Shown: in pieces, positions 3,140-18,987 of the stretch | How positions within the stretch are numbered: the first letter of the stretch is position 1 | Layout of the letters: every line of letters starts with the position of its first letter | From: Hyphomicrobiales bacterium | Lineage (GTDB): Bacteria; Pseudomonadota; Alphaproteobacteria; Rhizobiales; Xanthobacteraceae | Direction: 5' to 3' | DNA: 27,291 nucleotides | Assembly: GCA_034669125.1 (NCBI GenBank) | Contig: JAXDOA010000018.1 | Span: 1-27,291 of the forward strand | The notes under the pieces: generated by a model | What the model saw: the letters and a program-made list of their open reading frames with translations, nothing else | Databases searched by the model: none | Told to the model about the DNA's origin: nothing | Program-made: the position numbers and the translations under genes

Positions 3140-3638
3140 TGTTAGTAAACCTCGCAAATTCCCGCGCCACGGCGGCATAGACCTCGCGCCGGAAGGGCAC
3201 CACGAGTTCGGGCACGCGCGCGAGCTTCTCCCAGCGCCATGCGTCGAACTCGGGCTCCTGGCCGTTGCGCGTGTCCGCCACCACGATTTCGCGTTCGTCG
3301 CCGGTGAAGCGATAGGCGAACCACTTCTGGCGCTGGCCGCGAAACACGGCGAGCCGATGCGGCGGGCCGTCGTAGGGGGGAAACTCGTACGTGAGCCAGT
3401 CCGGCGTCTCGCCGAGATAGTCCACGCTCGTCACGCCGGTCTCTTCGTAAAGCTCGCGCACCGCGGCCGGGCGCGGGTCCTCGTCGGCGTCGATGCCGCC
3501 CTGCGGCATCTGCCACTCGAAACCGGGCAGGATGATTTCCGGCCCGTCGTCCTTGAAGCGCTTGGCGATCAGCACGCGGCCCGCCGCATTGAACAACGCG
3601 ACGCCGACGTTGGGGCGGTAGGGTTTGTCGGTGCCCAT
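3126..3638 (-). CDS. RNA pyrophosphohydrolase RppH-like Nudix hydrolase, second paralog (170 aa)
   Basis: [16 protein letters not shown], intact Nudix box GIDADEDPRPAAVRELYEETGV, GQRQKW, EFDAWRW, VVPFRR. The ATG at 3638 overlaps the GNAT stop (TGATG). Confidence 0.93.
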   Translation of the reverse strand: MGTDKPYRPNVGVALFNAAGRVLIAKRFKDDGPEIILPGFEWQMPQGGIDADEDPRPAAVRELYEETGVTSVDYLGETPDWLTYEFPPYDGPPHRLAVFRGQRQKWFAYRFTGDEREIVVADTRNGQEPEFDAWRWEKLARVPELVVPFRREVYAAVAREFARFTNRSSS

Positions 3639-4147: not shown

Positions 4148-4644
4148 TTCACCAGATGCGCAAACGCATCCACGACACGCTGGTACACCTCGCGCTTGAA
4201 CGGAATCACCAGATCGGGAAGGTTGCGCATCGGCTCCCAGCGCCACTCGACGAATTCGGGCTCATGGCCGCCGGCAGGCTCCAGAATATTGATCTCGCTC
4301 TCCTCGCCGGTGAAGGCGAGCGCGTACCACTTCTGCGTCTGCCCGCGATAACGCCCCTTCCAGGCGTGCTTCGCCACGTCCGGCGGCAGGTCGTAATCGA
4401 GCCACTCGGGAATTTCGGCGAGCTTCTTCACCGACGTGATGCTGGTCTCTTCGGCCAGCTCGCGCAGCGCCGCCGGCCACGGGTCCTCGCCCGGATCGAT
4501 GCCCCCCTGCGGCATCTGCCACACATGGGTGAGATCGACGTGCTCCGGCCCCTCGGTGCGCCGGCCGATGAACACAAGCCCCTCGCGGTTGAGCACCATG
4601 GTGCCGACGCAAGGACGATAGGGGAGGGAGGCGTGTTTGGACAT
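4144..4644 (-). CDS. rppH: RNA pyrophosphohydrolase (Nudix)
   Basis: [50 protein letters not shown]. Usual position after the divergent polysaccharide deacetylase gene. GGAG lies 7 nt before the ATG at 4644. Confidence 0.95.
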
Positions 4645-6139: not shown

Positions 6140-7483
6140 TTACTGCTGCGGCGCCTGCGCCGCCTTGGTGTTCGGCGGGAAGGCCGGATTGGTCTTGGTG
6201 CCGCGCAGAAGCTCCAGCGCCATGTTGAGCGCCTTGTCGTTCTTCACATCCGTCGGAATGTAGGACTGCGAGCCGGTCTGCTCCTCGCCTTCCTGCGCCT
6301 TCAAGTGTCCGCGCAGCGAGGACTCGCCCTTGGTGTCGGAACGCGCCTTGAGGTCATCCGGCACGTCCTGGAGCACCTCGATGTCCGGAACGATGCCCTT
6401 GGCCTGGATCGACTTGCCCGACGGCGTGTAATAGCGCGCCGTGGTCAGCCGCAGCGCGCCGTTGTTGTTGCCGAGCGGGATGATGGTCTGCACCGATCCC
6501 TTGCCGAACGAGCGCGTGCCGAGCACGGCCGAGCGCTTGTGGTCCTGCAGCGCGCCGGCGACGATCTCGGACGCCGAGGCCGAGCCGCCGTTGATCAGCA
6601 CGATCACGGGCTTGCCCTTGGTGAGGTCGCCCGCGCGCGCCGAATAGCGCTGGGTCTCTTCCGCGTTGCGGCCGCGCGTCGAGACGATCTCGCCGCGCTC
6701 CAGGAACGCATCGGACACGGAGATCGCCTGATCGAGCAAGCCGCCCGGATTGTTGCGCAGGTCGAGCACGTAGCCCTTGAGCTTGTCGTTCGGCACTTGC
6801 GCGATGATGTCGCTGATTGCCTTCTTCAGGCCTTCCGACGTCTGCTCGTTGAACTGGCTGATACGCAGGAAGCCGACATCGTCGCCTTCGATGCGCGAGC
6901 GCACCGAGCGTACGCGAATGACGTCGCGCGTGATCGAGACTTCGATCGGCTTGTCCTGGCCCTTGCGCATGATCTTGAGCCGGATCTTGGTGTTGACCGG
7001 CCCGCGCATCTTCTCGACCGCCTGGTTCAGGGTCAGGCCCTGAACCTGCTCGTCGTCGAGATGGGTGATGACGTCGTTCGCCATCACGCCGGCCTTGGCG
7101 GCGGGCGTGTCGTCGATCGGGGTGACGACCTTCACGAGGCCGTCTTCCATCGTGACCTCGATGCCGAGACCGCCGAATTCGCCGCGCGTCTGCACCTGCA
7201 TGTCGCGGAAGCTTTTCGGGTCCATGTAGCTCGAATGCGGGTCGAGCCCGTTGAGCATGCCGTTGATCGCCTGCTCCACCAGCTTGGCGTCGTCCGGCTT
7301 CTCGACGTAGTCGGCGCGCACGCGCTCGAACACGTCGCCGAACAGATTGAGCTGCCGGTAGGTATCGGCGGCTGCCGCCTTGGCGCTGGCACCGAGGAGG
7401 GCGAGGCGCGGCTGGGTGGCGGCGAGCGTGATGGCCACACCGGCTGCCGCTCCGAGGAGGACCAGAGAAGTCTTGCGTATCAT
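6140..7483 (-). CDS. ctpA: Carboxy-terminal processing protease, S41 family with PDZ domain
   Basis: LDPHSSY, GEFGGLGIEV (PDZ), LDLRNNPGGLL, GSASASEIVAGALQDH (catalytic Ser), SFGKGSVQ (Lys). The ATG at 7483 overlaps the envC stop. Confidence 0.97.
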   Translation of the reverse strand: MIRKTSLVLLGAAAGVAITLAATQPRLALLGASAKAAAADTYRQLNLFGDVFERVRADYVEKPDDAKLVEQAINGMLNGLDPHSSYMDPKSFRDMQVQTRGEFGGLGIEVTMEDGLVKVVTPIDDTPAAKAGVMANDVITHLDDEQVQGLTLNQAVEKMRGPVNTKIRLKIMRKGQDKPIEVSITRDVIRVRSVRSRIEGDDVGFLRISQFNEQTSEGLKKAISDIIAQVPNDKLKGYVLDLRNNPGGLLDQAISVSDAFLERGEIVSTRGRNAEETQRYSARAGDLTKGKPVIVLINGGSASASEIVAGALQDHKRSAVLGTRSFGKGSVQTIIPLGNNNGALRLTTARYYTPSGKSIQAKGIVPDIEVLQDVPDDLKARSDTKGESSLRGHLKAQEGEEQTGSQSYIPTDVKNDKALNMALELLRGTKTNPAFPPNTKAAQAPQQ

Positions 7484-8835
7484 CCGCGAACCTTTTCGCT
7501 GTCGGATGCCCACCATGGGCTGGGATCGACGGGACTGCCGTCTTTTCGGAATTCGATGTACAGGACCGGTTGGCTGGAACCCGTCGCTACGGCCGCGGCC
7601 GATTGTGGCCCACCCCCCATGATCGCCACTGGTTCCCCGGTCAGCACAAACTGGCCAAGATCGACCGAGATTCGCTCCATCCCCGCTAGCAACACATGAT
7701 ACCCGCCGCCGGCGTTCAGGATCAAGAGTTGTCCGTAGGAACGGAATGGTCCCGCGTACACGACCCAGCCGTCGCAGGGCGCCGTGACCTGCGCGCCGGC
7801 CCGGCTCGCGATCGACAGGCCTTTTTCGGTTCCACCCAAGCCGTCCGGTACGCCGAATTCGCGGATTCTGATGCCGTTTAGCGGCAGCGGCAGCGATTTC
7901 CGGGCCGACGCAAAGGCAATCGCCGGAGACAGCCGGCCCGGGTCCTGAAGCGCCGCGAGGCTGTTTTTCGGATCGGTGGCGGGTTTGTCGGCTCGCGCCG
8001 CGGCTGCCGCACGGGCAGCGGAGGCGATCTCCTGCTCGATCTTGCCGATCAGGTCCTTGAGATTGTCGGCCTGCCGGGCCAGTTGCACCGAGCGGGTACG
8101 CTCGGCGTCGAGCGCCTTCTCGGTCTCGGATTGTTTGCGCTGGCGCTCCTGGACGAGCCCGGTCATGCGCGATCTTTCCTGCGTAACTGCGGCGAGATCA
8201 CGGCCGAGCACCTCCCGTTCGGCCGCTATTTCGGTACGTACTTTCACGAGTTCGGCAAGATCGGCGACGAGCGTGTCGACCTCGATCTTCATGTCGGGCA
8301 GCACCGCCCCGAGCAGGATCGCGGTGCGCACCGATTGCAGCGCATCTTCCGGGCTTACCAGCAGCGCGGGCGGGGGATGGCGGCCGACCCGCTGCAGGGC
8401 CGCGAGCACCTCGCCGATCACCGCCTTGCGGCTGGCGAGCGAGCGGCGCACGGTATTCTCATTGTTCCCCAGCGCGTTGAGCCGGGCCTCGGCGGCGGCG
8501 ACGCTCTCCTCGAGCGCGCGGATGTTGGCGGCCGAGCCGATCAGCAGCGCATTGAGCTTGCGGCGGTCCTCGCCGATCGAATCAAGCTCGGCCTTGAGCC
8601 TGGCGGCGAGATCGGCCGCGCGCTTCTGCTCGGCCTGAACTTTCTCCAGTTCCTCCAGCCGTGCGCCCTTGGCGGCTTCCGGCGCAACCGCGGTCGCGGC
8701 AGATGAGGTTGTTGTAGGTGTTGTGGGCGTCGGGGTGATCTGGAGCGGCTGTTGGGCACGTCCCGGCGCTGCGAGCAAAAACAGGCTCGCGCAAAGCGCG
8801 CCGGCACAAAGCCGGCCTGCGGCGGACGGGGTCAT
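7480..8835 (-). CDS. envC: Murein hydrolase activator EnvC family (coiled coil plus degenerate M23/LytM domain)
   Basis: Signal peptide, long coiled coil, then APCDGWVVYAGPFRSYGQLLILNAGGGYHVLLAG and LYIEFRKDG.PVDP. Start chosen at ATG 8835; the track offers TTG 8844. Confidence 0.92.
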   Translation of the reverse strand: MTPSAAGRLCAGALCASLFLLAAPGRAQQPLQITPTPTTPTTTSSAATAVAPEAAKGARLEELEKVQAEQKRAADLAARLKAELDSIGEDRRKLNALLIGSAANIRALEESVAAAEARLNALGNNENTVRRSLASRKAVIGEVLAALQRVGRHPPPALLVSPEDALQSVRTAILLGAVLPDMKIEVDTLVADLAELVKVRTEIAAEREVLGRDLAAVTQERSRMTGLVQERQRKQSETEKALDAERTRSVQLARQADNLKDLIGKIEQEIASAARAAAAARADKPATDPKNSLAALQDPGRLSPAIAFASARKSLPLPLNGIRIREFGVPDGLGGTEKGLSIASRAGAQVTAPCDGWVVYAGPFRSYGQLLILNAGGGYHVLLAGMERISVDLGQFVLTGEPVAIMGGGPQSAAAVATGSSQPVLYIEFRKDGSPVDPSPWWASDSEKVRG

Positions 8836-8860
8836 CGGCCCCAAATAGGCATCAAGTTCA

Positions 8861-8971: not shown

Positions 8972-11170
8972 ATGCAATCCGACGCATTCGTTGCCGCCGT
9001 CCGCCACCATCAGGCCGGCCAGTTCGCCGAAGCCGACCGCCTGTATCGCCAGGTGCTCGCCGCCGAGCCGCAGCACGTGCATGCGCTGCATCTCTCCGGT
9101 GCGCTCGCTCAAGCGACCGGGCGCAACGAGGAGGCGGTTGCGCTGATCGGGCGCGCCATCGCGCTCAACGGCGAGGTTCCGGATTTTCACTACAATCTCG
9201 GGCTTGCCCTTTGGGCGCTCAATCGCCGCGAGGAGGCGTGCCGTCACTGGACGCGTGCCGTCAAGCTCAATCCGAACTTCGCGCAGGCGCGGCTCAATCT
9301 CGGCAATGCGTTGCGCAAGGAGCGCCGCTTCATCGAAGCGATCGCGCAACACAGCGCGCTGGTGCAGCTTCAGCCGCAGTCGGCGGCGGCGCACAACAGC
9401 CTCGGTCTGTCGCTCGCGAAGGCCGGACGCGACGAGGACGCGATCCACCATTACGGCCGCGCGCTCGCGCTGCAGCCGGATTTCATCGACGCCACCCTCA
9501 ACCTCGCGATCTCGCATTCGAACCGCGGCAACACCGGCGAGGCGCTCGCGCTCACGATGCGCAGCATCGATATTCGCGAGACCCCGGAGAACAAGACCTT
9601 GTTCGCGGGACTTGTCATCGGAATCGCGGTCGAGCGCGACGAGCCTGAACTGCGCCGTTTCCTGCTGCGTGCGCTGGAGCAGGGCTGGAGTGCACCGAGT
9701 GCCTTTGCGCCCGCCTGCATCGGGCTGATCCGTAACGGCCCAATGCGTTCGCTCATCGCGCGCGCCGCGCAGGCGTGGCCCGCGCGGTTGCCGGGTGCCG
9801 AGTTGTTCGGAGCGGTGGGCCCCGCACTGAACGATTCCCTGCTGCAAGCCTTGATGACGAGGACCGCGATCGCCGACTCCGACCTCGAGAAGTTCCTCGC
9901 GGCCTGCCGTTTTGCACTGCTGGAAGCCGCCGAGGCCGCGCCGTCCGATGATGCCGCCCTGCTGGATGTTGCGTGCGCGCTCGCGCGCCAGTGTTTCATC
10001 AATGAGTATGTCTACGCGACGGCCGCTGACGAGGAGGCGCGGGCAGGGCGCTTGCGCGAACGTCTGGAAGCCGCGCTGGCGGCGGGCGAGGCCTTGCCGC
10101 CGCTGTGGGTCGCGACGGTTGCGGCGTATTTTCCGTTGCACGAGCTTGCCGGCGCACCGTCGCTGCTGGCGCGATCCTGGCCGGCTCCCATCGCGGCGCT
10201 CCTCGTCCAGCAGATCCGCGAGCCGCAAGAGCAGGCCGCGCTGCGCGACAGCATCGGGCAACTCACACCCATCGAAGGCGAGGTATCGCAAGCCGTGCAG
10301 GCGCAGTACGAGGCCAATCCGTATCCGCGATGGATCAGCACGGCCGCGCCGAAGAAATATGCGAGCGTCGATGCGTATTTGCACGAGCGGTTTCCGTCCG
10401 CGACGCTCCGCGCGCCCGGCAAAACCGGCGGCCTCGACATTCTCATCGCGGGTTGCGGCACCGGCCAGCAAGCGATCCTGACGGCGCAGCAATATGAAAG
10501 CGCGCGCATGCTTGCGATCGATCTCAGCCGCGCGAGCCTTGCCTACGCGGCGGGCAAGACGCGCGCGCTCGGGCTCGATATCGAATATGCGCAGGCCGAC
10601 ATCATGCGGCTCGGCGCGCTGCAGCGCCGCTTCGACCTGATCGAGTCGGGCGGCGTGCTGCATCATCTCGCCGAGCCGTATGCGGGCTGGCGCGTGCTGC
10701 TGCCGCTGCTACGTCCCGGCGGTTTCATGCGCATCGGTCTCTACAGCGAGATCGCCCGGCGCGGTGTCGTGGCCGCCCGCGCGCTGGTCGCCGGGAAGGG
10801 CTACGGCGCGACGCCCGCCGAGATCCGCCGCTTCCGGCTGGAGTTGATGCAAGCAGGCGATGGACCGGCGCGCGACATCTTGCGGTTCAACGACTTCTAC
10901 AGCATGAGCGAGTGCCGCGATCTCGTGTTCCACACCCAGGAACACCGCATGACCCTCCCGGCGATCAAGAGTTTTCTGGCTGAGGAGCGCCTGCAACTCC
11001 TCGGGCTGGAAATCGACCGGACGACGGCGCGGCAATATGCGGCGCGATTTCCCGCCGACGCGGCGATGACCGATCTCGACGGCTGGCATGCCTTCGAGCA
11101 GGACAACCCGCACACATTCCAGAGCATGTACGTGTTCTGGGTGCAGAAGCCGGCCGATCACGCGCGATGA
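8972..11170 (+). CDS. TPR-repeat protein fused to a class I SAM-dependent methyltransferase
   Basis: About six N-terminal TPR helix pairs (e.g. AIALNGEVPDFHYNLGLAL). The C-terminal part has QYEANPYPRW, ILIAGCGTGQ (motif I) and FDLIESGGVLHH. Confidence 0.9.
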   Translation: MQSDAFVAAVRHHQAGQFAEADRLYRQVLAAEPQHVHALHLSGALAQATGRNEEAVALIGRAIALNGEVPDFHYNLGLALWALNRREEACRHWTRAVKLNPNFAQARLNLGNALRKERRFIEAIAQHSALVQLQPQSAAAHNSLGLSLAKAGRDEDAIHHYGRALALQPDFIDATLNLAISHSNRGNTGEALALTMRSIDIRETPENKTLFAGLVIGIAVERDEPELRRFLLRALEQGWSAPSAFAPACIGLIRNGPMRSLIARAAQAWPARLPGAELFGAVGPALNDSLLQALMTRTAIADSDLEKFLAACRFALLEAAEAAPSDDAALLDVACALARQCFINEYVYATAADEEARAGRLRERLEAALAAGEALPPLWVATVAAYFPLHELAGAPSLLARSWPAPIAALLVQQIREPQEQAALRDSIGQLTPIEGEVSQAVQAQYEANPYPRWISTAAPKKYASVDAYLHERFPSATLRAPGKTGGLDILIAGCGTGQQAILTAQQYESARMLAIDLSRASLAYAAGKTRALGLDIEYAQADIMRLGALQRRFDLIESGGVLHHLAEPYAGWRVLLPLLRPGGFMRIGLYSEIARRGVVAARALVAGKGYGATPAEIRRFRLELMQAGDGPARDILRFNDFYSMSECRDLVFHTQEHRMTLPAIKSFLAEERLQLLGLEIDRTTARQYAARFPADAAMTDLDGWHAFEQDNPHTFQSMYVFWVQKPADHAR

Positions 11171-11268
11171 TTCTGTTCCCGACGGGCATCCTTCTGTAGG
11201 CTGTCCCTGACTTCATGTGAGGTCACCTCGGCCGCTGCGCCGGCCGAGGTGGATACCGGGGGGCATCC

Positions 11269-12516
11269 ATGAACCGCGACCGCACGCATTTCCTGTTCCT
11301 GAATATCGGGCACTTCCTCGATCACCTGTTCACGCTGATCTTCGCGACGGTCGCGGCGCTGGCGCTGACGCGCGAATGGAACCTGAGCTACGGGGAGTTG
11401 CTCAAGTACGCCACGCCCGGTTTCTTCGCATTCGGGGTGTTCTCCTATCCGGCCGGCTGGCTCGCCGACAAATGGAGCCGCGAGGGGATGATGGTGCTGT
11501 TCTTCGCCGGCATCGGGCTTGCCTCCATGGCGACGGGGTTTGCGCAAACGCCGCTGCAGGTCGGCATCGGGCTGTTTGCGATCGGCGTATTCGCGGCGAT
11601 CTACCATCCGGTCGGCCTCGCGATGGTGACGGCGAGATGGAAGAACACCGGCATGCGGCTCGCCGTGAACGGCGTGTGGGGCAATCTCGGCGTCGCCAGC
11701 GCCGCGCTGATCACCGGTTACCTGATCGACAACGGCGGCTGGCGCATGGCGTTCATCATTCCGGGCGTGCTCTCGATCGCGGTGGGGCTCGCGTACTGGC
11801 TCGCGCGGCGCGAGGAGATTTCCACTGAGCGCGCCACGTCGAAGGCCGCGTCCGGCGGCGTTTCGCAAGGGATGGATCGTAACGCGCTGCTGCTGCGCGT
11901 GTCGTTGATCGTGTTCATGACAACGGCCGTTTCCAGCATCATCTTCCAGGCGACGACCTTCGCGCTGCCGAAGATTTTCGACGAGCGGCTTCAGGGGCTC
12001 GCGTCGTCTGCTGCCGCATGGCTCAAGAGCTTCGGCTTTGCGGGCAACACCGACGTCGCCACGATGGTCGGCATGTTCGCCTTCGCGGTGTTCGCGATCG
12101 CCTCGCTGGCGCAGCTTGTGGTCGGCAGCCTGCTCGATCGGCTCGGCGCGCGTCCGGTGTTCATGGGTGCGGCCGTGGTTCAGCTTGTGTTCTTCGCTCT
12201 TATGGCCGGTTCGCGCGAGGGCTGGGCACTCGTGCTCGCGCTCGGCTTCATGCTGGGTGCGTTCGGCCAGATACCCATCAACGATTTCATGATCGGCAAG
12301 ATGGCGAGCGGGGCTGCGCGCGCACGCGTCTATGGCATCCGCTACGTGGTGAGCTTCACGGCGCTCGCCGCCGCACTGCCGCTGATTGCGTTCGTGTACG
12401 AGCGCTGGGGCTTCGACACGCTGTTCTATGTGTTGGCGGGTGCCGCCACTGTGATCCTTGCGCTCGTCACGTGCCTGCCGCGCAAGATGCCGGTGGCGAC
12501 CGCGGCGGTGGCATGA
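11269..12516 (+). CDS. MFS transporter (Fsr-like)
   Basis: About 12 hydrophobic segments. GWLADKWSR and GSLLDRLGAR MFS motif-A loops; GHFLDH and AAIYHP motifs. Confidence 0.92.
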   Translation: MNRDRTHFLFLNIGHFLDHLFTLIFATVAALALTREWNLSYGELLKYATPGFFAFGVFSYPAGWLADKWSREGMMVLFFAGIGLASMATGFAQTPLQVGIGLFAIGVFAAIYHPVGLAMVTARWKNTGMRLAVNGVWGNLGVASAALITGYLIDNGGWRMAFIIPGVLSIAVGLAYWLARREEISTERATSKAASGGVSQGMDRNALLLRVSLIVFMTTAVSSIIFQATTFALPKIFDERLQGLASSAAAWLKSFGFAGNTDVATMVGMFAFAVFAIASLAQLVVGSLLDRLGARPVFMGAAVVQLVFFALMAGSREGWALVLALGFMLGAFGQIPINDFMIGKMASGAARARVYGIRYVVSFTALAAALPLIAFVYERWGFDTLFYVLAGAATVILALVTCLPRKMPVATAAVA

Positions 12517-12532
12517 ATTCTCCGCTGGCGCG

Positions 12533-13006
12533 CTAATCCTTCTGCCCCAGCATGCGAGTGAGATACGCTTCCGCGTCACCGGGCAGCGCGAATTCCGGGG
12601 TCGTGTCCGGTACCCCAAGATAGAACACTGTGAGCTTCGGCCGGTTGGCGGCGGCATCCTCGGCGCTCGCGAAGAAATGAAACTCGGTGCTTGGGTGATC
12701 GGCGAAACTCGCGCGCGGGATGGAAAGATCCGTCTCGCGTTCGAGCGGACGCGCGGCGAACACCTTGTGGTCCTTGGTGAAAGGATCGACGCCGTCGACA
12801 CGGATGAAGCGATGGCTCGCGTCCGCCACAATCCGGATGACGACCAGCGTATCGGCCTCAGCTGTGCCGCGCTTCACCGCCCAACTCAGTTTGACGCTTG
12901 GCGAAACGAAGGTCGAATTCTCGCCATGCACCCGCGTGTCCTGTGCGGCGAGCGGGGAGCCAAGCAGAATGCCGAACAAGGCGGCGGCAAGAAGCCGGTG
13001 CATCAT
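12533..13006 (-). CDS. Secreted hypothetical protein, translationally coupled to the ABC ATPase
   Basis: Signal peptide ends PLAA-Q. The start overlaps the ATPase stop (ATGA), and the composition is that of a globular protein. Confidence 0.8.
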   Translation of the reverse strand: MMHRLLAAALFGILLGSPLAAQDTRVHGENSTFVSPSVKLSWAVKRGTAEADTLVVIRIVADASHRFIRVDGVDPFTKDHKVFAARPLERETDLSIPRASFADHPSTEFHFFASAEDAAANRPKLTVFYLGVPDTTPEFALPGDAEAYLTRMLGQKD

Positions 13007-14085
13007 GTTCCTTCTTTCGCCAGCAATTGCACGCCTTCGTGCGGAAGACGGACGCTGACCGCATCGCCGGGCGCGAACCGCTCCGACGGCGGCGGGTTGA
13101 AGCGCACGATCTGCACGGTCTGGCCCGCCACCTCGACCTCGTACTCCATCTTCTCGCCCAGATAAGTGCGGGATTTGACCCTCCCGGCGAGGCCGTTGCC
13201 GGGCGCGCCAATCGCAATCGCTTCGGGACGCACATTGGCGAGCACCGTCTGCCCGGTATTCACGTTCGCGCCCGCGCCTTCGACCGCATGCGGCTGTCCC
13301 GCGATGGTGAGATCGACGCGATCCGGGCTAACAGCCGTCACCAAAGCCTCGACCAGGTTCGAGCGTCCGATAAAGCGAGCGACGAACACCGAGGCCGGAA
13401 GGCGATAAAGCTCCTCAGCCGTGCCGAGCTGCTCGATCAGGCCCCTGTTCATGACCGCAATGCGGTCGGATATCGCCATCGCCTCTTCCTGATCGTGCGT
13501 CACGTACACCGTCGTGATGCCGAGACGGCGCTGCAGGTCGCGGATCTCGCCGCGCATTTGGGTGCGCAGCTTGGCGTCGAGGTTGGAGAGCGGCTCATCG
13601 AACAGGAGCACGCGTGGCTTGATGACGATCGCACGCGCGAGCGCGACGCGCTGCTGCTCGCCGCCGGAAAGCTGATGCGGCATCTGCCGCTCGTAGGAGG
13701 CGAGCCCGACCAGCGCCAGCACATCGGTGACGGCGCGGGCGATGTCGCCGCCGTCCATTCGTTTGACCGTTAACCCGTAGGCGACGTTCTCGAACACCGA
13801 GAGATGCGGAAACAGCGCGTAATTCTGGAACACAAAGCCGATGTTGCGCTCGTTCGCCTCGGTTTGCGTGACGTCGCGATCGCCGATGAAAATCTCGCCG
13901 CCGCTCGGTTCCTGGAAGCCCGCGATCATGCGCAAGGTCGTGGTCTTGCCGCAGCCCGAGGGCCCGAGCAGCGTCATCAGTTCGCCTGGCGCAACATCGA
14001 GGCTCACGTCGCGCACCGCTGCGATGTCACCTTTCACCTGATGGCGGAAGCGCGCGGACACCGATTTGAGGCGAATCCCGTCCAT
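13003..14085 (-). CDS. ABC transporter ATP-binding protein, FbpC/PotA type with TOBE domain
   Basis: Walker A GPSGCGKT, signature LSGGEQQR, Walker B LLFDEP, H-loop VTHDQEEA. Confidence 0.97.
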   Translation of the reverse strand: MDGIRLKSVSARFRHQVKGDIAAVRDVSLDVAPGELMTLLGPSGCGKTTTLRMIAGFQEPSGGEIFIGDRDVTQTEANERNIGFVFQNYALFPHLSVFENVAYGLTVKRMDGGDIARAVTDVLALVGLASYERQMPHQLSGGEQQRVALARAIVIKPRVLLFDEPLSNLDAKLRTQMRGEIRDLQRRLGITTVYVTHDQEEAMAISDRIAVMNRGLIEQLGTAEELYRLPASVFVARFIGRSNLVEALVTAVSPDRVDLTIAGQPHAVEGAGANVNTGQTVLANVRPEAIAIGAPGNGLAGRVKSRTYLGEKMEYEVEVAGQTVQIVRFNPPPSERFAPGDAVSVRLPHEGVQLLAKEGT

Positions 14086-14086
14086 G

Positions 14087-15778
14087 TCAGCCGCCTCCGA
14101 CGCCCCATTGCGCCTGTTCGGCGGCCGCGGCCGGAAGCCGGCGCAGCAGTGCGTTCACGCAGGTCGTCACCGCCATGACGATCACGATGACGAACACGGA
14201 GAATGCGGCAGCAGGCCCAAGCGAAAGCTCGGTCATGTTTTCCAGAATGCGCACCGTGATCAGCGTCCAGCCGATCGAGACGAGGAAGATGGTCGCGCTG
14301 ATCGCCGTCATGGAGCGGATGAACACCACGCCGACGCCGGCGAAGAAGGCTGGCATCACCAGCGGCAGCGTGATGCGACGGAACGTCGTCACGCTGCGGG
14401 CGCCGAGGCTTTTGGAGGCTTCCTCCAACGATTTGTCGATCTGATGCAGCAGCGCGACCGTGGTGCGGATGCCGGTCGGCGAATAACGGAACACGTAGCA
14501 GGCGATAATGATCAGCGCCGTGCCGGTGAGCGCGATCGGCGGGTCGTTGAAGGCGATCAGATAGGCGATGCCGACGATGGTGCCGGGCAGCGCGTAGTTG
14601 ATCATGGAAACGACTTCCATGGTGCGCCGGCCGGCGAACTCCTTGCGCGCCACCAGATAGCCGGTGAGCACTCCGTAGAAGCCGCCGAGCGGCATCCCGA
14701 TCAGTGCGATGGTCATCGTGTCGACGATCGCCTTGCGGCCTTCGGTGAAGATGACGTGGTAGTGCGCGAGCGTCCACGTGTGGTTGGCGCCGAAGGCGAC
14801 GACGAGTGAGGCGTGCAGCAGCAGCGCGTACAGATAGGCGATGAACAACGCGACCGCGAGACAAACCAGGATCAGCGCCCAGCGCATGGCCGGCGTCACG
14901 CTGCGGATGGTCGATTGCGGTCCGGCCTTGCCGCTGATCGTCACATAGTGCCCGCGCTCCACCCAAGTGCGCTGCACGAAATAGACGAGCGCGGCCGGCA
15001 CAAGGAGGAGCAGCGACATCGCGGCGCCGCCCTTGAGATCGAACAGGCCGGTGATCTGCAGATAGGCTTCGGTCGGCAGCACCGGGAATGAGTTTCCGGC
15101 GAGGATCAGCGGCGTCGCGAAATCCGCGAGCGAAGCTGCGAACAGCAGCAGGAATGCGTTGGCCAATCCGGGCAACGCCAGCCGCAAGGTCACCGTTTTG
15201 AACACGTTGAAGCGCGACGAGCCGAGGCTGAACGCCATCTCTTCCAGATTGCCGCCGATCGCGGCGAGCACCGGCCGCAGCGCCAGATAGGCGATCGGGA
15301 AATAGGTGAGCACTTCGGCGGCGAGCGTGCTCGGCAGGCCATACACGTTCGTTCCACGCATGCCGAAGAGCTCGTAAGTGATCAGCCCGCGCGGCCCGAA
15401 CGAGAAGATAAACGCAATCGAGGTGGTGAACGGCGGCGAGATCAGCGGCAGCAGGGTCATCGCATCGATCACGCGCACCCAGCCAGACGGCAGGTTCGCG
15501 CGGCTGACCGTGAAGGCGAACAGGAATCCGAGCGCCGTGCCGATTGTGCCGACCAGTGTGCCGAGCAGCAGCGAGTTGACGAAGGCGCGCTGCGTCCCCG
15601 GCTTCTGCAACACGCCGAGCAGCGGGCCGAGCGCCGGCCGTCCTTCCTCGAAGAAGGCGGTACCCCCGAGCATCAGCAATGGGTAGATGACGAACAGCGC
15701 CAGCAGGACCCATAGCACCGTGACGGTGACGAGCAGCGCCGGGTCGCGCACCAGGCGTGGGCGAGCCGCCCCTGTCAT
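14087..15778 (-). CDS. ABC transporter permease, fused two-domain FbpB/AfuB type (563 aa)
   Basis: Two EAA loops (LEEMAFSLG; LEEASKSLGA) and about 12 TM segments. Start moved to ATG 15778 because the longer ORF overlaps the binding-protein gene. Confidence 0.95.
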   Translation of the reverse strand: MTGAARPRLVRDPALLVTVTVLWVLLALFVIYPLLMLGGTAFFEEGRPALGPLLGVLQKPGTQRAFVNSLLLGTLVGTIGTALGFLFAFTVSRANLPSGWVRVIDAMTLLPLISPPFTTSIAFIFSFGPRGLITYELFGMRGTNVYGLPSTLAAEVLTYFPIAYLALRPVLAAIGGNLEEMAFSLGSSRFNVFKTVTLRLALPGLANAFLLLFAASLADFATPLILAGNSFPVLPTEAYLQITGLFDLKGGAAMSLLLLVPAALVYFVQRTWVERGHYVTISGKAGPQSTIRSVTPAMRWALILVCLAVALFIAYLYALLLHASLVVAFGANHTWTLAHYHVIFTEGRKAIVDTMTIALIGMPLGGFYGVLTGYLVARKEFAGRRTMEVVSMINYALPGTIVGIAYLIAFNDPPIALTGTALIIIACYVFRYSPTGIRTTVALLHQIDKSLEEASKSLGARSVTTFRRITLPLVMPAFFAGVGVVFIRSMTAISATIFLVSIGWTLITVRILENMTELSLGPAAAFSVFVIVIVMAVTTCVNALLRRLPAAAAEQAQWGVGGG

Positions 15779-15794
15779 CGCGCGTGCGTCATGC

Positions 15795-16829
15795 TCACGG
15801 CAAAATCTCGGCGACCCAGCGGTCCACGATCCGCTTGCGGTTCGCGCCCGCATAGGCGTCGTCGATCGCAAAGATCTTCGCATCCTTCAGGATTGCCGCC
15901 AACGAAGGCTCGGTCTGCACGTCCGGGTGCGCCGGCACGAAATTGATCTTGTGCTTGGCGTAGAGATTTTGCATCGCCGGGCTGGTGGCCCAGTCGATCA
16001 GCTTCTTGCCGGCGGCCGGATTCTTCGCGCCCTTCAAGAGCGCGATGCCTTCCGCGGCCGTACCGATGCCCTCCTTCGGAAAGCTGATCACCACGTCGTA
16101 GCCCTTGGCCTTGGTGTCGAGCGCATCGACGATGAAGAAGATGCCGCCGCCGGCCTGCCCGAGGCCGACCGGCAGCGTGCCGCCGCCGCCGCTCTTGGTG
16201 TAAAGCTGGATGTTGGCGCGTAGCTTTTTCATGAAGGCGAAGGCCTTCTCCTCGTCGCGCCCGTTGACTTCCAGCACGGAGAAAATGCGCGTCACCGCCG
16301 TGCCCGACGTGCGCGCATCGGCCATCTGCAACATGCCCTTGTAGGCGGGATTGAGCAGATCGTCCCACGACGCCGGCGCATTCAGTCTGTGCTCGGCCAG
16401 GAATTTCCCGCTGGTCATGAACACCAGCGGATCGTCCGCGATCGCGGTCCATTGGCCGTCGGCTTGCTTGAAGCGCGCGGGCAGTGCGGCCGCCGATGGC
16501 GGCTTGTAGGATTCGAACACGTTCTCCTTGATGCCGGCCGCGAAGGTTTCGACCGGGCCGCCGAACAGCACATCGACGCGCGGATTATTCTTCTCGGCGA
16601 TGATGCGGGCGAGTGCTTCGCCCGAGGAGAAGCGCAGGAAATTCACCTTGATGCCGCTCGCGGCCTCGAACTCCTGCAGCATCGGCCGCGCCCAGTTCTC
16701 CGGCCAGATCGAATAGACGTTGAGCGTCTCCTGCGCCGTGGCGGCTTGCGGCAGCGCGAGGCCAAGGAGGGCGGTCAGGAATGCTTTGGACGCGAACCGG
16801 CGCGTTGCAGGGGTGATCCAAGCGTTCAC
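15795..16829 (-). CDS. ABC transporter substrate-binding protein, FbpA/AfuA-like (344 aa)
   Basis: GTG at 16829 with GGGAGG upstream and a signal peptide. Motifs [28 protein letters not shown] and FPKEG. Confidence 0.93.
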
Positions 16830-16943
16830 GATGTCCTCCCCGGAATCCCGATAGACTTTTCTTGTGGCGGGGCCGAGCGCCGCGCCTCGCACAATGATGC
16901 GACGCTGCGCGTGCAAACACAATGCGATCCGGCGGCCGTGAAC

Positions 16944-17071
16944 CTACTCCCGGTGATACGGGGCCCCGACAGGATCGTGGTCGCGCGGTAGATTTGCTCC
17001 AGCAGCATGATGCGCACCAATTGGTGCGGCCAGGTCAGCTCCCCGAAAGCGAGATGCAGGTCGGCCTGGTC
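16944..17071 (-). pseudogene. rlmH: Duplicated 3' fragment of rlmH (last 42 codons) with a 1-nt deletion
   Basis: Aligns by eye to 17937-18065 with 6 substitutions in sense codons, a different stop (TAG vs TGA) and one missing base near 16962. It has no 5' part of the gene. Confidence 0.95.
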
Positions 17072-17079
17072 GCCGCCGG

Positions 17080-17817
17080 CTAGTCGACGAGCCAAATATT
17101 TTCCTCGGGCATCAGCGCAACACAGCCGGTCACACCACCCACCGGCGGCCGGGCGCTTGCAGCCGGCGGCAACGGAGCGCCTGGCGGACGGCTAAGGTAT
17201 GTGGGCAGATCCTGCGGAGGTCGTATCATCTGCTCAAGGTAATCCAGTTCATGCAGGCGGTCGAAGTGGACGGCAAACCCTTCATTGAATCGCCTGACGA
17301 CATGACCAACGGCACGGCCGACAGAGAGACGCGTTCCAATTTCCGGGTCGACATCGGCGGATACCGCAACGCCGGAAGGCGAGACATCGATCACGAAGCA
17401 GCTGAGCGTGGTCCCGTCCGCGAAGATCAGATTGGTGTGCGGGTTTTCGGGGATTAGCCGCTGCTGACGTCGCAGGTCGACAACGGCATTGCGCTGCTTT
17501 TTTTCTAGCCAGCTGAGCTTGCCCGCGAGGCTTTCGCGTTCCTTTCGCGTCACCGCGATATCGACCAGGAAGCCGCCCTCGACGACGTCCGTGATCCAGC
17601 CGTCGAGCTTGCCGAGCTCACCGAAAAACGAGATGACGCGCTCGCCTTGCGGCCCGAGCACCGGCGCGGCGACCAGCATCTGGAATGGAGAAATACGCGT
17701 CGTGCGGCACGCGAACTCGCGACGGTTGCCTTGCATGTCGCGGCGATTGGAAAGGCTGTAGCGTCCGCCGGTGCGGAGTTCGACAGCGTGCCGCTGCATG
17801 AATTCATTGAAGGACAA
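17080..17817 (-). CDS. Tandem PilZ-domain protein (245 aa)
   Basis: [10 protein letters not shown] in the first domain; RRQQR (RxxxR) and IDVSPSG (DxSxxG) in the second. TTG start at 17817 with GGAGG 6 nt upstream. The track's start at 17940 overlaps the rlmH stop and is rejected. Confidence 0.85.
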
Positions 17818-17889
17818 GGGACGCCTCCGACGAACGTGCGCCAGATTAGGGCGGGAAGCCTCTACGAAATATTGCGGTCCGCAAGTTCC

Positions 17890-17904
17890 ATAAAATTGAG
17901 TTAA
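17890..17904 (-). promoter_or_regulatory. Candidate CtrA box upstream of the PilZ gene
   Basis: Minus strand TTAA-ctcaatt-TTAT, a 7/8 match, in an AT-rich patch. A GANTC site lies at 17913-17917. Confidence 0.45.
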
Positions 17905-17936
17905 GTTTGGCCGAATCGGCCTGCAGAAAGTCGAGC

Positions 17937-18416
17937 TCATTCCCGGTGATACGGGTGCCCCGACAGGATCGTGGTCGCGCGGTAGATCTGCTCCAGCAGC
18001 ATGATGCGCACCAATTGATGCGGCCAGGTGAGCGCCCCGAAGGCGAGATGCAGGTCGGCCTGGTCCGACAGCGTCGGCGCGAGACCGTCCGGGCCGCCGA
18101 TCACGAACGCCACGTCGCGGCCGCCGTCGTTCCAGCCGCGCAGGCGCTTGGTGAAAGCGTTGGAGTCGACGGTCTCGCCGCGCGGGTCGAGCAGCACGGT
18201 CGCGGCGTCCTTCGGGATCACGTTGGCGAGCGCGATCGATTCTTCCAGCATGCGCCGCTGCGGCTCGCGCGCGCGGCTCTCGGCGATTTCGACGACTTCG
18301 AGCGAGCGCAGGCCGATCCCGCGTCCCGATTTGACGGCGCGCTCCCGATAGCGTTCGCTGAGATCGCTCTCAGGGCCACGCTTGAGCCGGCCGACTGCCG
18401 CGATGACGATGCGCAT
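17937..18416 (-). CDS. rlmH: 23S rRNA (pseudouridine1915-N3)-methyltransferase
   Basis: [55 protein letters not shown] signature; follows rsfS. Confidence 0.98.
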   Translation of the reverse strand: MRIVIAAVGRLKRGPESDLSERYRERAVKSGRGIGLRSLEVVEIAESRAREPQRRMLEESIALANVIPKDAATVLLDPRGETVDSNAFTKRLRGWNDGGRDVAFVIGGPDGLAPTLSDQADLHLAFGALTWPHQLVRIMLLEQIYRATTILSGHPYHRE

Positions 18417-18448: not shown

Positions 18449-18856
18449 TCAGCTCGCGCGTTTGCCGCGGGTGCTGCCCGGCTCCCACATCTTTTCGAGG
18501 TTGTAGAAGTCGCGAACCTCGGGCCGGAAGACGTGGACGATCACGTCGCCTGCGTCGATCAGCACCCAGTCGCAATGCGGCATGCCCTCGACCCGCAGGT
18601 TCCGTAAGCCGGCCTTGCGCAGGTCTTCGAGCACGCGATCGGCGACCGCGCCGACGTGACGATTGGACCGTCCGGAGGTCACAACCATGGTGTCGGCGAT
18701 GGTGGTTTTGCCGCGCAGATCGATGGAGGTGGTGTCCTCGGCCTTCATGTCGTCGAGGCTGACGAGGACGTGGCGAAGGGTTTCCTCGGGGCTTGGCGCC
18801 TTGGAAACCGGTTCGGGCTTGTAACGGGCTGCCCGAGGGAGCGCAGTGATGGACAG
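18449..18856 (-). CDS. rsfS: Ribosome silencing factor (Iojap family)
   Basis: LDDMKAED, IADTMVVTSGRSNRHV, DWVLIDAGDVIVHVF..EVRDFYNLEKMW. The start is uncertain; CTG at 18856 follows a GAAAGGA SD. Confidence 0.95.
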   Translation of the reverse strand: MSITALPRAARYKPEPVSKAPSPEETLRHVLVSLDDMKAEDTTSIDLRGKTTIADTMVVTSGRSNRHVGAVADRVLEDLRKAGLRNLRVEGMPHCDWVLIDAGDVIVHVFRPEVRDFYNLEKMWEPGSTRGKRAS

Positions 18857-18987
18857 GGGCTGTGATCCTTTCGGTTCATAGCCCCGGACACCCTGCCCGG
18901 GGCCTACAACCAGCATATGCGTGCCCGGTTAATGGATTCAACCCGGCCCATGGTCCGCAACGCCACTTTCCGGGGTTTGCGCGACCT

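Follow-up and report, generated by a model that had tools for sequence, protein, structure and literature searches.

In staphylococci and macrococci, SCC and SCCmec elements are targeted to the 3' end of rlmH (orfX) by Ccr large serine recombinases, which act on a fixed core just ~15 bp long, and direct repeats of the gene end then bracket the cargo with the gene left intact. The E. coli elements e14 and phage 21 integrate in icd and carry a replacement 3' end for it; such prophages and elements come with an integrase gene and a defined attP, and at icd one sees a long, mostly synonymous duplicate of the 3' end, the displaced native end being a pseudogene fragment. For the orphan 3' ends of Rhs, CDI and T6SS effector-immunity loci a model of homology-facilitated illegitimate recombination (HFIR, or "displacement") has been described (PMC5361080, which cites de Vries & Wackernagel 2002, Prudhomme et al. 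2002 and Meier & Wackernagel 2003): the homologous anchor is a conserved gene, a new 3' end is brought in together with the downstream gene or genes, and the old 3' end is pushed downstream, where it decays, the far joint being non-homologous and no dedicated recombinase taking part. The locus considered here, in which a second rlmH 3' end lies beyond a single PilZ-domain gene, is best read along the lines of this last model. Our main reading, which we hold at a probability of about 0.68, is that the repeat is the scar of a homology-anchored recombination with one illegitimate end, which would have struck the interval between rlmH and envC without an integrase of its own.

The window, by which we mean the whole stretch of 27,291 nucleotides analysed, is the entire contig C18 of a Hyphomicrobiales MAG (here G000) that comprises 735 contigs and is 75% complete. 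Its minus strand carries, in order, priA ... proA, nadD, rsfS (18449-18916; the conserved upstream neighbour of rlmH), rlmH (17937-18416), a spacer (17800-17936), the PilZ gene (17080-17817), the orphan rlmH end (16944-17071) and an ABC importer operon (12533-16922) made up of an SBP gene (15795-16922), a fused permease gene (14087-15883), an ATPase gene (13003-14085) and a 157-aa ORF. Beyond the importer lie an MFS transporter gene (Y; 11269-12516) and a TPR-methyltransferase gene (X; 8972-11170), both on the plus strand, which form the rest of the variable interval (8972-12516); then come the gene for an envC-like M23 peptidase (7480-8844, minus strand), the conserved far border of that interval, and ctpA. 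A Pfam scan of the 18 window ORFs of at least 150 aa, and of one of 148 aa, found no integrase, transposase or resolvase, in agreement with the preliminary description, which had seen no integrase between the two rlmH ends. Elsewhere in the window, a direct repeat with 70% identity (3178-3516 and 4184-4522) represents two diverged Nudix (RppH-like) paralogues.

Repeat search, MAFFT alignment and translation all bear out that the rlmH 3' end occurs twice around one PilZ gene, as had been noticed from the sequence at the outset: 16944-17071 (128 nt) duplicates 17937-18065 (129 nt), the last 129 nt of the intact gene, on the minus strand and with 95% identity, and the 128-mer matches at these two places only when the whole assembly is searched (E = 8e-62 and 5.5e-51). 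The 5'-most 23 nt are the same in both copies, the longest exact run they have in common is 31 nt, and, with the stop region excluded, they differ by 5 substitutions and one 1-nt deletion. The codons affected are GCC/GCT, GCG/GAG, CTC/CTG, CAT/CAC, CAG/CAA and GAA/GAG, and in the stop region the orphan has GAG TAG where the copy still attached to the gene has GAA TGA. The preliminary description proved accurate in all of these details (five synonymous changes, one Ala/Glu change, TGA vs. TAG, the 1-nt deletion and the 23 identical bp), as it did in placing the start of the orphan copy 9 nt past the PilZ stop, 8 nt (17072-17079) intervening. The gene-attached copy belongs to an intact frame of 159 aa, the product of which matches PF02590 (SPOUT_MTase) over its full length (145.4 bits, residues 1-157); the orphan is frameshifted after ...ILSG. 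Five of the six substitutions between the copies are synonymous, where about 27% would be expected (P ~0.007), which bears out the synonymous bias noted at the outset; three of the substitutions and the 1-nt deletion, however, are confined to the orphan, and these look like decay that followed the event.

The other species of the genus, 16 in number, are all represented by soil MAGs. Whole-locus comparisons show two constant borders, rsfS-rlmH and envC, with content between them that varies. There is nothing (~450 nt) between rlmH and envC in G012; an MFS gene only in G013, G016 and G015 (with the far side visible in G013 alone, the contigs of G016 and G015 being short); an MFS gene with LysR/TctC, with DUF885, or with a 2157-aa cadherin-like adhesin accompanied by DUF2332 and acyl-CoA dehydrogenase genes in G001 (two loci), G006 and G010; PilZ and X in G009, G005 and nine soil metagenome contigs, an arrangement that we call type II; the MFS gene and the ABC operon, the latter abutting rlmH, in G003; and LysR, ABC, MFS, PilZ and X in G014. 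Pfam scans of the cargo ORFs of G014, G010, G001 (two loci), G006, G005 and G003, and of the window itself, detected no integrase, transposase or other recombinase, and none turned up in any of the roughly ten versions of the interval. Because the cargo varies and no recombinase travels with it, the rlmH-envC interval is seen to be a plasticity zone of ordinary genes. Variable cargo downstream of rlmH had been anticipated in the preliminary description, and the survey does reveal a hotspot in the genus, with LysR, TctC, adhesin and transporter genes among its contents. The two loci of G001 (C4 and C6; L032 and L031) are both full envC-MFS-cargo-rlmH-rsfS loci with different cargo, and two strains have probably been mixed in that MAG. 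One relative, G005, is interrupted on the other side of rlmH as well, since a 1.8-kb insertion with a MIP-family channel gene (L026:7094-8922) there parts rlmH from rsfS.

G003 aligns without a break with window positions 12520-17071 and takes up again at 17941, so that the orphan end and its 22-nt flank to the SBP gene correspond to the ABC/rlmH junction of G003. The point at which the last 84 nt of X meet the MFS gene is likewise common to the two genomes. Judged by this alignment, G003, which has ABC next to rlmH and no PilZ between them, is the empty site whose existence had been surmised, and G000 has a G003-like order plus an insertion of 994 nt consisting of an rlmH end, a spacer and PilZ. 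The same three elements stand in the same succession in the type II loci, where the order is rsfS-rlmH-spacer-PilZ-X-envC (11 instances in total, X again being the TPR/methyltransferase gene); the spacer of G000 is homologous to those of the genomes with the rlmH-PilZ order and is 81% identical to that of G014. As far as gene order goes, PilZ and its upstream spacer are thus an ordinary chromosomal neighbour of rlmH rather than a roaming cassette, and the 994-nt insertion is a piece of normal type II chromosome. Were the polarity the opposite one, recombination between the repeats could have deleted PilZ from G003. In G003 itself, X has been replaced by a different ORF of 794 aa with a weak RTX-repeat match (L027:2853-5237), which retains the last ~84 nt of X (window 11087-11170) as its own 3' end; on the alignment this is a second example of a gene end shared at the edge of a cargo.

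To see which piece is foreign, four-fold degenerate sites were compared gene by gene between G000 and G014, its nearest relative. The flanking genes (X, MFS, four ABC genes and nadD) differ at 192 of 1635 sites (11.7%), and X, Y and ABC are concordant at about 11%. The PilZ gene differs at 39 of 128 sites (30.5%; Fisher p = 7e-8 vs. the flanks), a divergence as large as that from the distant G009, and this segment coalesces much deeper than its flanks. Given 30.5% vs. 11.7%, the PilZ genes of G000 and G014 did not descend vertically from their common ancestor, and an origin in another lineage is called for. No PilZ allele closer than that of G014 (86% nt identity) was found among the species-representative genomes and JGI metagenomes scanned. 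The rlmH gene differs at 15 of 95 sites (15.8%), not significantly different from the flanks, and rsfS at 3 of 94 (3.2%; p = 0.007 vs. the flanks). The near identity of rsfS (18449-18916) in G000 and G014, with a shift in divergence near the start of rlmH, suggests a recent homologous exchange that would have ended at the rsfS/rlmH border.

As to the alleles of the two rlmH ends, the orphan has T27, C51, the AGTAG stop and its flank in common with G003, and the rlmH ends of both G003 and G014 read AGTAG. The gene-attached copy ends AATGA; G005, a type II genome, has the identical ending, and TGA is the stop in most type II contigs as well. In a maximum-likelihood tree of rlmH 3' ends (129 columns) the two copies part, the orphan falling with G003 (89/75) and the attached end with the type II contig L051 (93/81). 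These few sites give moderate support to the view that the orphan is the native end and that the end now on the gene arrived with PilZ. The earlier proposal that one of the two ends came from another genome is upheld by these affinities together with the PilZ divergence.

The inserted gene encodes a protein of 239-245 aa, the shorter form being encoded at 17080-17799 and the stop lying at 17080-17082. It scores 26.3 bits against PilZ PF07238 (cut-off 22.5), and the 239-aa form has RRQQR at residue 110 and DVSPSG at residue 138, matching the RxxxR and D/NxSxxG motifs; by domain and motifs, then, the predicted product is a PilZ protein of the c-di-GMP type. An exact look-up of the 239-aa form returned no record; the 245-aa form and RlmH did yield contigs. 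A simple scan found no sigma-70-like promoter for PilZ or for the ABC operon. In the spacer, the minus strand of 17872-17884 forms a weak terminator-like hairpin, TTGCGGACCGCAA, followed by TATTTCG. The homology of G000 to type II extends from rlmH across the spacer and PilZ to a point 6-8 nt beyond the PilZ stop codon, after which come a 2-nt filler (or 1-2 nt of microhomology) and then rlmH position -128. This joint (17072-17079), where the PilZ segment meets the orphan, is novel and non-homologous; its minus strand reads TAG-CCGGCG-GC-GACCAGG, and the homology on either side amounts to at most 1-2 nt.

These observations favour a displacement of the HFIR kind, in which the ancestor had its ABC operon directly behind rlmH, as G003 still has, and received DNA from a related bacterium with the order rsfS-rlmH-spacer-PilZ. 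One end of a linear incoming fragment would have recombined homologously inside rlmH or rsfS, the conserved anchor (and rsfS could be part of it), and the far end, which lies 6-8 nt beyond PilZ, would have been joined without homology to the recipient chromosome 128 nt before the rlmH stop. The donor piece would then have supplied the working rlmH end, the spacer and PilZ, and the native 128-nt end, still attached to the ABC operon, would have been displaced distally and left to decay. One border of the insertion does lie in a conserved homologous anchor and the other is a joint without homology, and the inserted DNA appears to come from another lineage that shares the anchor (the 30.5% vs. 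11.7% divergence of PilZ, and the rlmH-PilZ order common among the relatives). The same topology could have been produced by a Campbell-type single crossover, within the 128 nt, of a circularised rlmH3'-spacer-PilZ molecule of about 1 kb, and this version would be the better fit if donor sequence in the attached copy were confined to its stop region, with a crossover in the last ~40 nt. The body of the attached copy is as near to G003 and G014 as the orphan is, and the mismatch profiles along rlmH have too few informative sites to place the crossover, for which reason the linear and circular versions are not separable. Unlike the Rhs, CDI and T6SS loci, the anchor at this locus is a housekeeping rRNA methyltransferase gene, both ends encode the same protein and nothing is diversified, and the cargo is a PilZ gene instead of a toxin-immunity pair; the mechanism proposed here is also one that we read from the scars in the sequence.

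The alternative that survives best runs in the reverse direction. A type II recipient with the order X-PilZ-rlmH would have had its X/PilZ spacer of ~38 nt replaced by a block of ~5.9 kb, comprising MFS-ABC and 128 nt of rlmH, with the orphan end as a passenger on the incoming block. It can draw on the fact that the type II order is the commonest context for PilZ and on the physical linkage of the orphan to the ABC operon. That operon has moved before, too: with 79-87% identity its sequence (window 12517-16743) is found at unrelated loci in G013 (C3), G001 (C18), G006 (C417) and G007 (C1), and its presence elsewhere in the genus implies that it was translocated to the rlmH locus in the clade of G000, G003 and G014. 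In G014, moreover, a type II locus has received an insertion of this very sort, made up of Y-ABC-LysR. The junctions tell otherwise, however. Since G003 and G000 have both the X-3'-end/MFS and the ABC/rlmH junctions in common, the block order X-Y-ABC-rlmH must predate G000; moreover it is PilZ, not the ABC block, that is discordant in divergence, and the reverse event would need two illegitimate joints at once. For the first two of these reasons we regard the reverse polarity as the less likely one, and rate both the block replacement and the passenger status of the orphan as doubtful.

Site-specific integration, the reading initially favoured for this locus, seems improbable by comparison. 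It would make the 994-bp segment a mini-cassette with a replacement rlmH end, mobilised by a recombinase acting in trans at an att core within the 23 identical nt, and the direct repeats of 128 and 129 nt around a single gene, those identical 23 nt, the empty site in G003 and the fame of rlmH as the SCC target are all as such a cassette would have them. A large serine recombinase does exist elsewhere in the MAG, the sole PF07508 match being at C660:1558-1848, on a contig unlinked to the rlmH locus; as nothing ties C660 to that locus, we rejected it as the agent. The supposed cassette is, however, ordinary chromosome in 11 related genomes and contigs, no version of the interval encodes a recombinase, and the joint 8 nt past the stop codon has no repeat or inverted-repeat signature.

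Other rlmH-end scars in the genus also bear on a fixed att core. When a profile of rlmH ends was run with nhmmer over all fetched loci, G010 gave the one significant match, a decayed remnant of 54 nt (L030:12129-12182, E = 5e-5) lying 1.5 kb downstream of rlmH, past the acyl-CoA dehydrogenase-like gene and at the start of the DUF2332 gene; its alignment score of 64 compares with a shuffle maximum of 42, and it shares G010-specific bases with the rlmH end of the same genome. A match in G013 (E = 0.17) was set aside as unproven. In G014 (L023:10102-10194), ~22 nt of an rlmH end with a mutated stop (CACCCAATATCACCGGGAGGAG) are contiguous with the PilZ spacer, a score that 2 of 300 shuffles reached; this remnant lies between the MFS gene and the PilZ spacer, is followed by an inserted GC-rich hairpin (GGGGCGGCCGAGCGCTGTCCGCGACGCCCC), and is separated from the intact rlmH by the MFS-ABC-LysR block. 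The 5' limits of the three scars are thus ~-128 (G000), ~-65 (G010) and ~-22 (G014), a pattern that speaks against a fixed att core and suggests that chance determined the breakpoints. Nor did the idea that duplicated rlmH ends might be a feature of the whole family hold up: a query with the last 50 residues of RlmH, which is blind to decayed remnants, matched a duplicated C-terminus in 1 of the 195 family genomes with a hit, namely G000, with no second instance among them. The notion of an attL/attR-bounded mobilised cassette is accordingly not supported, the segment being a normal piece of type II chromosome. The locus is like SCC in its target, in the gene-end repeats that bracket the cargo and in the intact gene, and unlike it in the length of the repeat (128 bp), in having no recombinase and in the differing breakpoints of its independent scars. 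Its likeness to e14 in icd lies in the long and mostly synonymous duplicate and in the displaced native end, now a pseudogene fragment, and the difference in a unit of 994 bp that has neither integrase nor defined attP and is found as normal chromosome in related lineages. One might still imagine that, in this genus of uncultured soil Alphaproteobacteria, short integrase-less cassettes enter preferentially at the 3' end of rlmH, moved by a recombinase in trans or by a dedicated break-and-copy process, as a Gram-negative counterpart of SCC; we give this idea very little credence, and just as little to its corollary that the three scar lengths reflect later erosion rather than different breakpoints.

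It is quite unlikely that the arrangement is an assembly artefact, a chimera of two co-occurring strains with rlmH-PilZ and rlmH-ABC respectively, even though the MAG is fragmented and incomplete and both arrangements occur in the genus. A switch of strain inside the common rlmH sequence would yield a single arrangement rather than the two in succession, and the PilZ/orphan joint has no common sequence to mis-join on, the two copies themselves sharing no exact run longer than 31 nt. The JGI metagenome contig Ga0467080_0000951, which is 18.9 kb long and whose ends are different, matches at 100% identity from rsfS to MFS, and a third assembly, a 1-kb Logan contig from run SRR24887270, carries PilZ exactly and, after it, an ORF whose offset is that of the orphan ORF, and so appears to hold the same arrangement. 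A purely local duplication of the rlmH end in G000 with subsequent decay of one copy, already doubted in the preliminary description and suggested by the three substitutions and frameshift confined to the orphan, is scarcely credible and largely refuted by the comparison with G003, the allele classes and the PilZ divergence, for a tandem event gives A-B-A-B, whereas the locus is A-B-A and has a flank of the G003 type, the three changes between the stop regions fit two different allele classes, PilZ is xenologous and 5 of the 6 changes are synonymous.

The event in G000 is, on the displacement reading, a recombination scar of an already known kind at a local hotspot, and as such it offers a clean natural example, from an uncultured soil member of the Hyphomicrobiales, of gene order being reshuffled without the machinery of mobile elements: a conserved housekeeping gene anchors the incoming DNA, and the displaced gene end remains as the record of the event. 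It is also a warning to annotators not to take the duplication of a gene end on either side of one gene as sufficient evidence of an integrative element. For the genus, the interval between rlmH and envC is a zone of plasticity. For the organism itself, repeats of 128 nt with 95% identity make PilZ deletable by simple recombination, which could yield subpopulations with and without PilZ.
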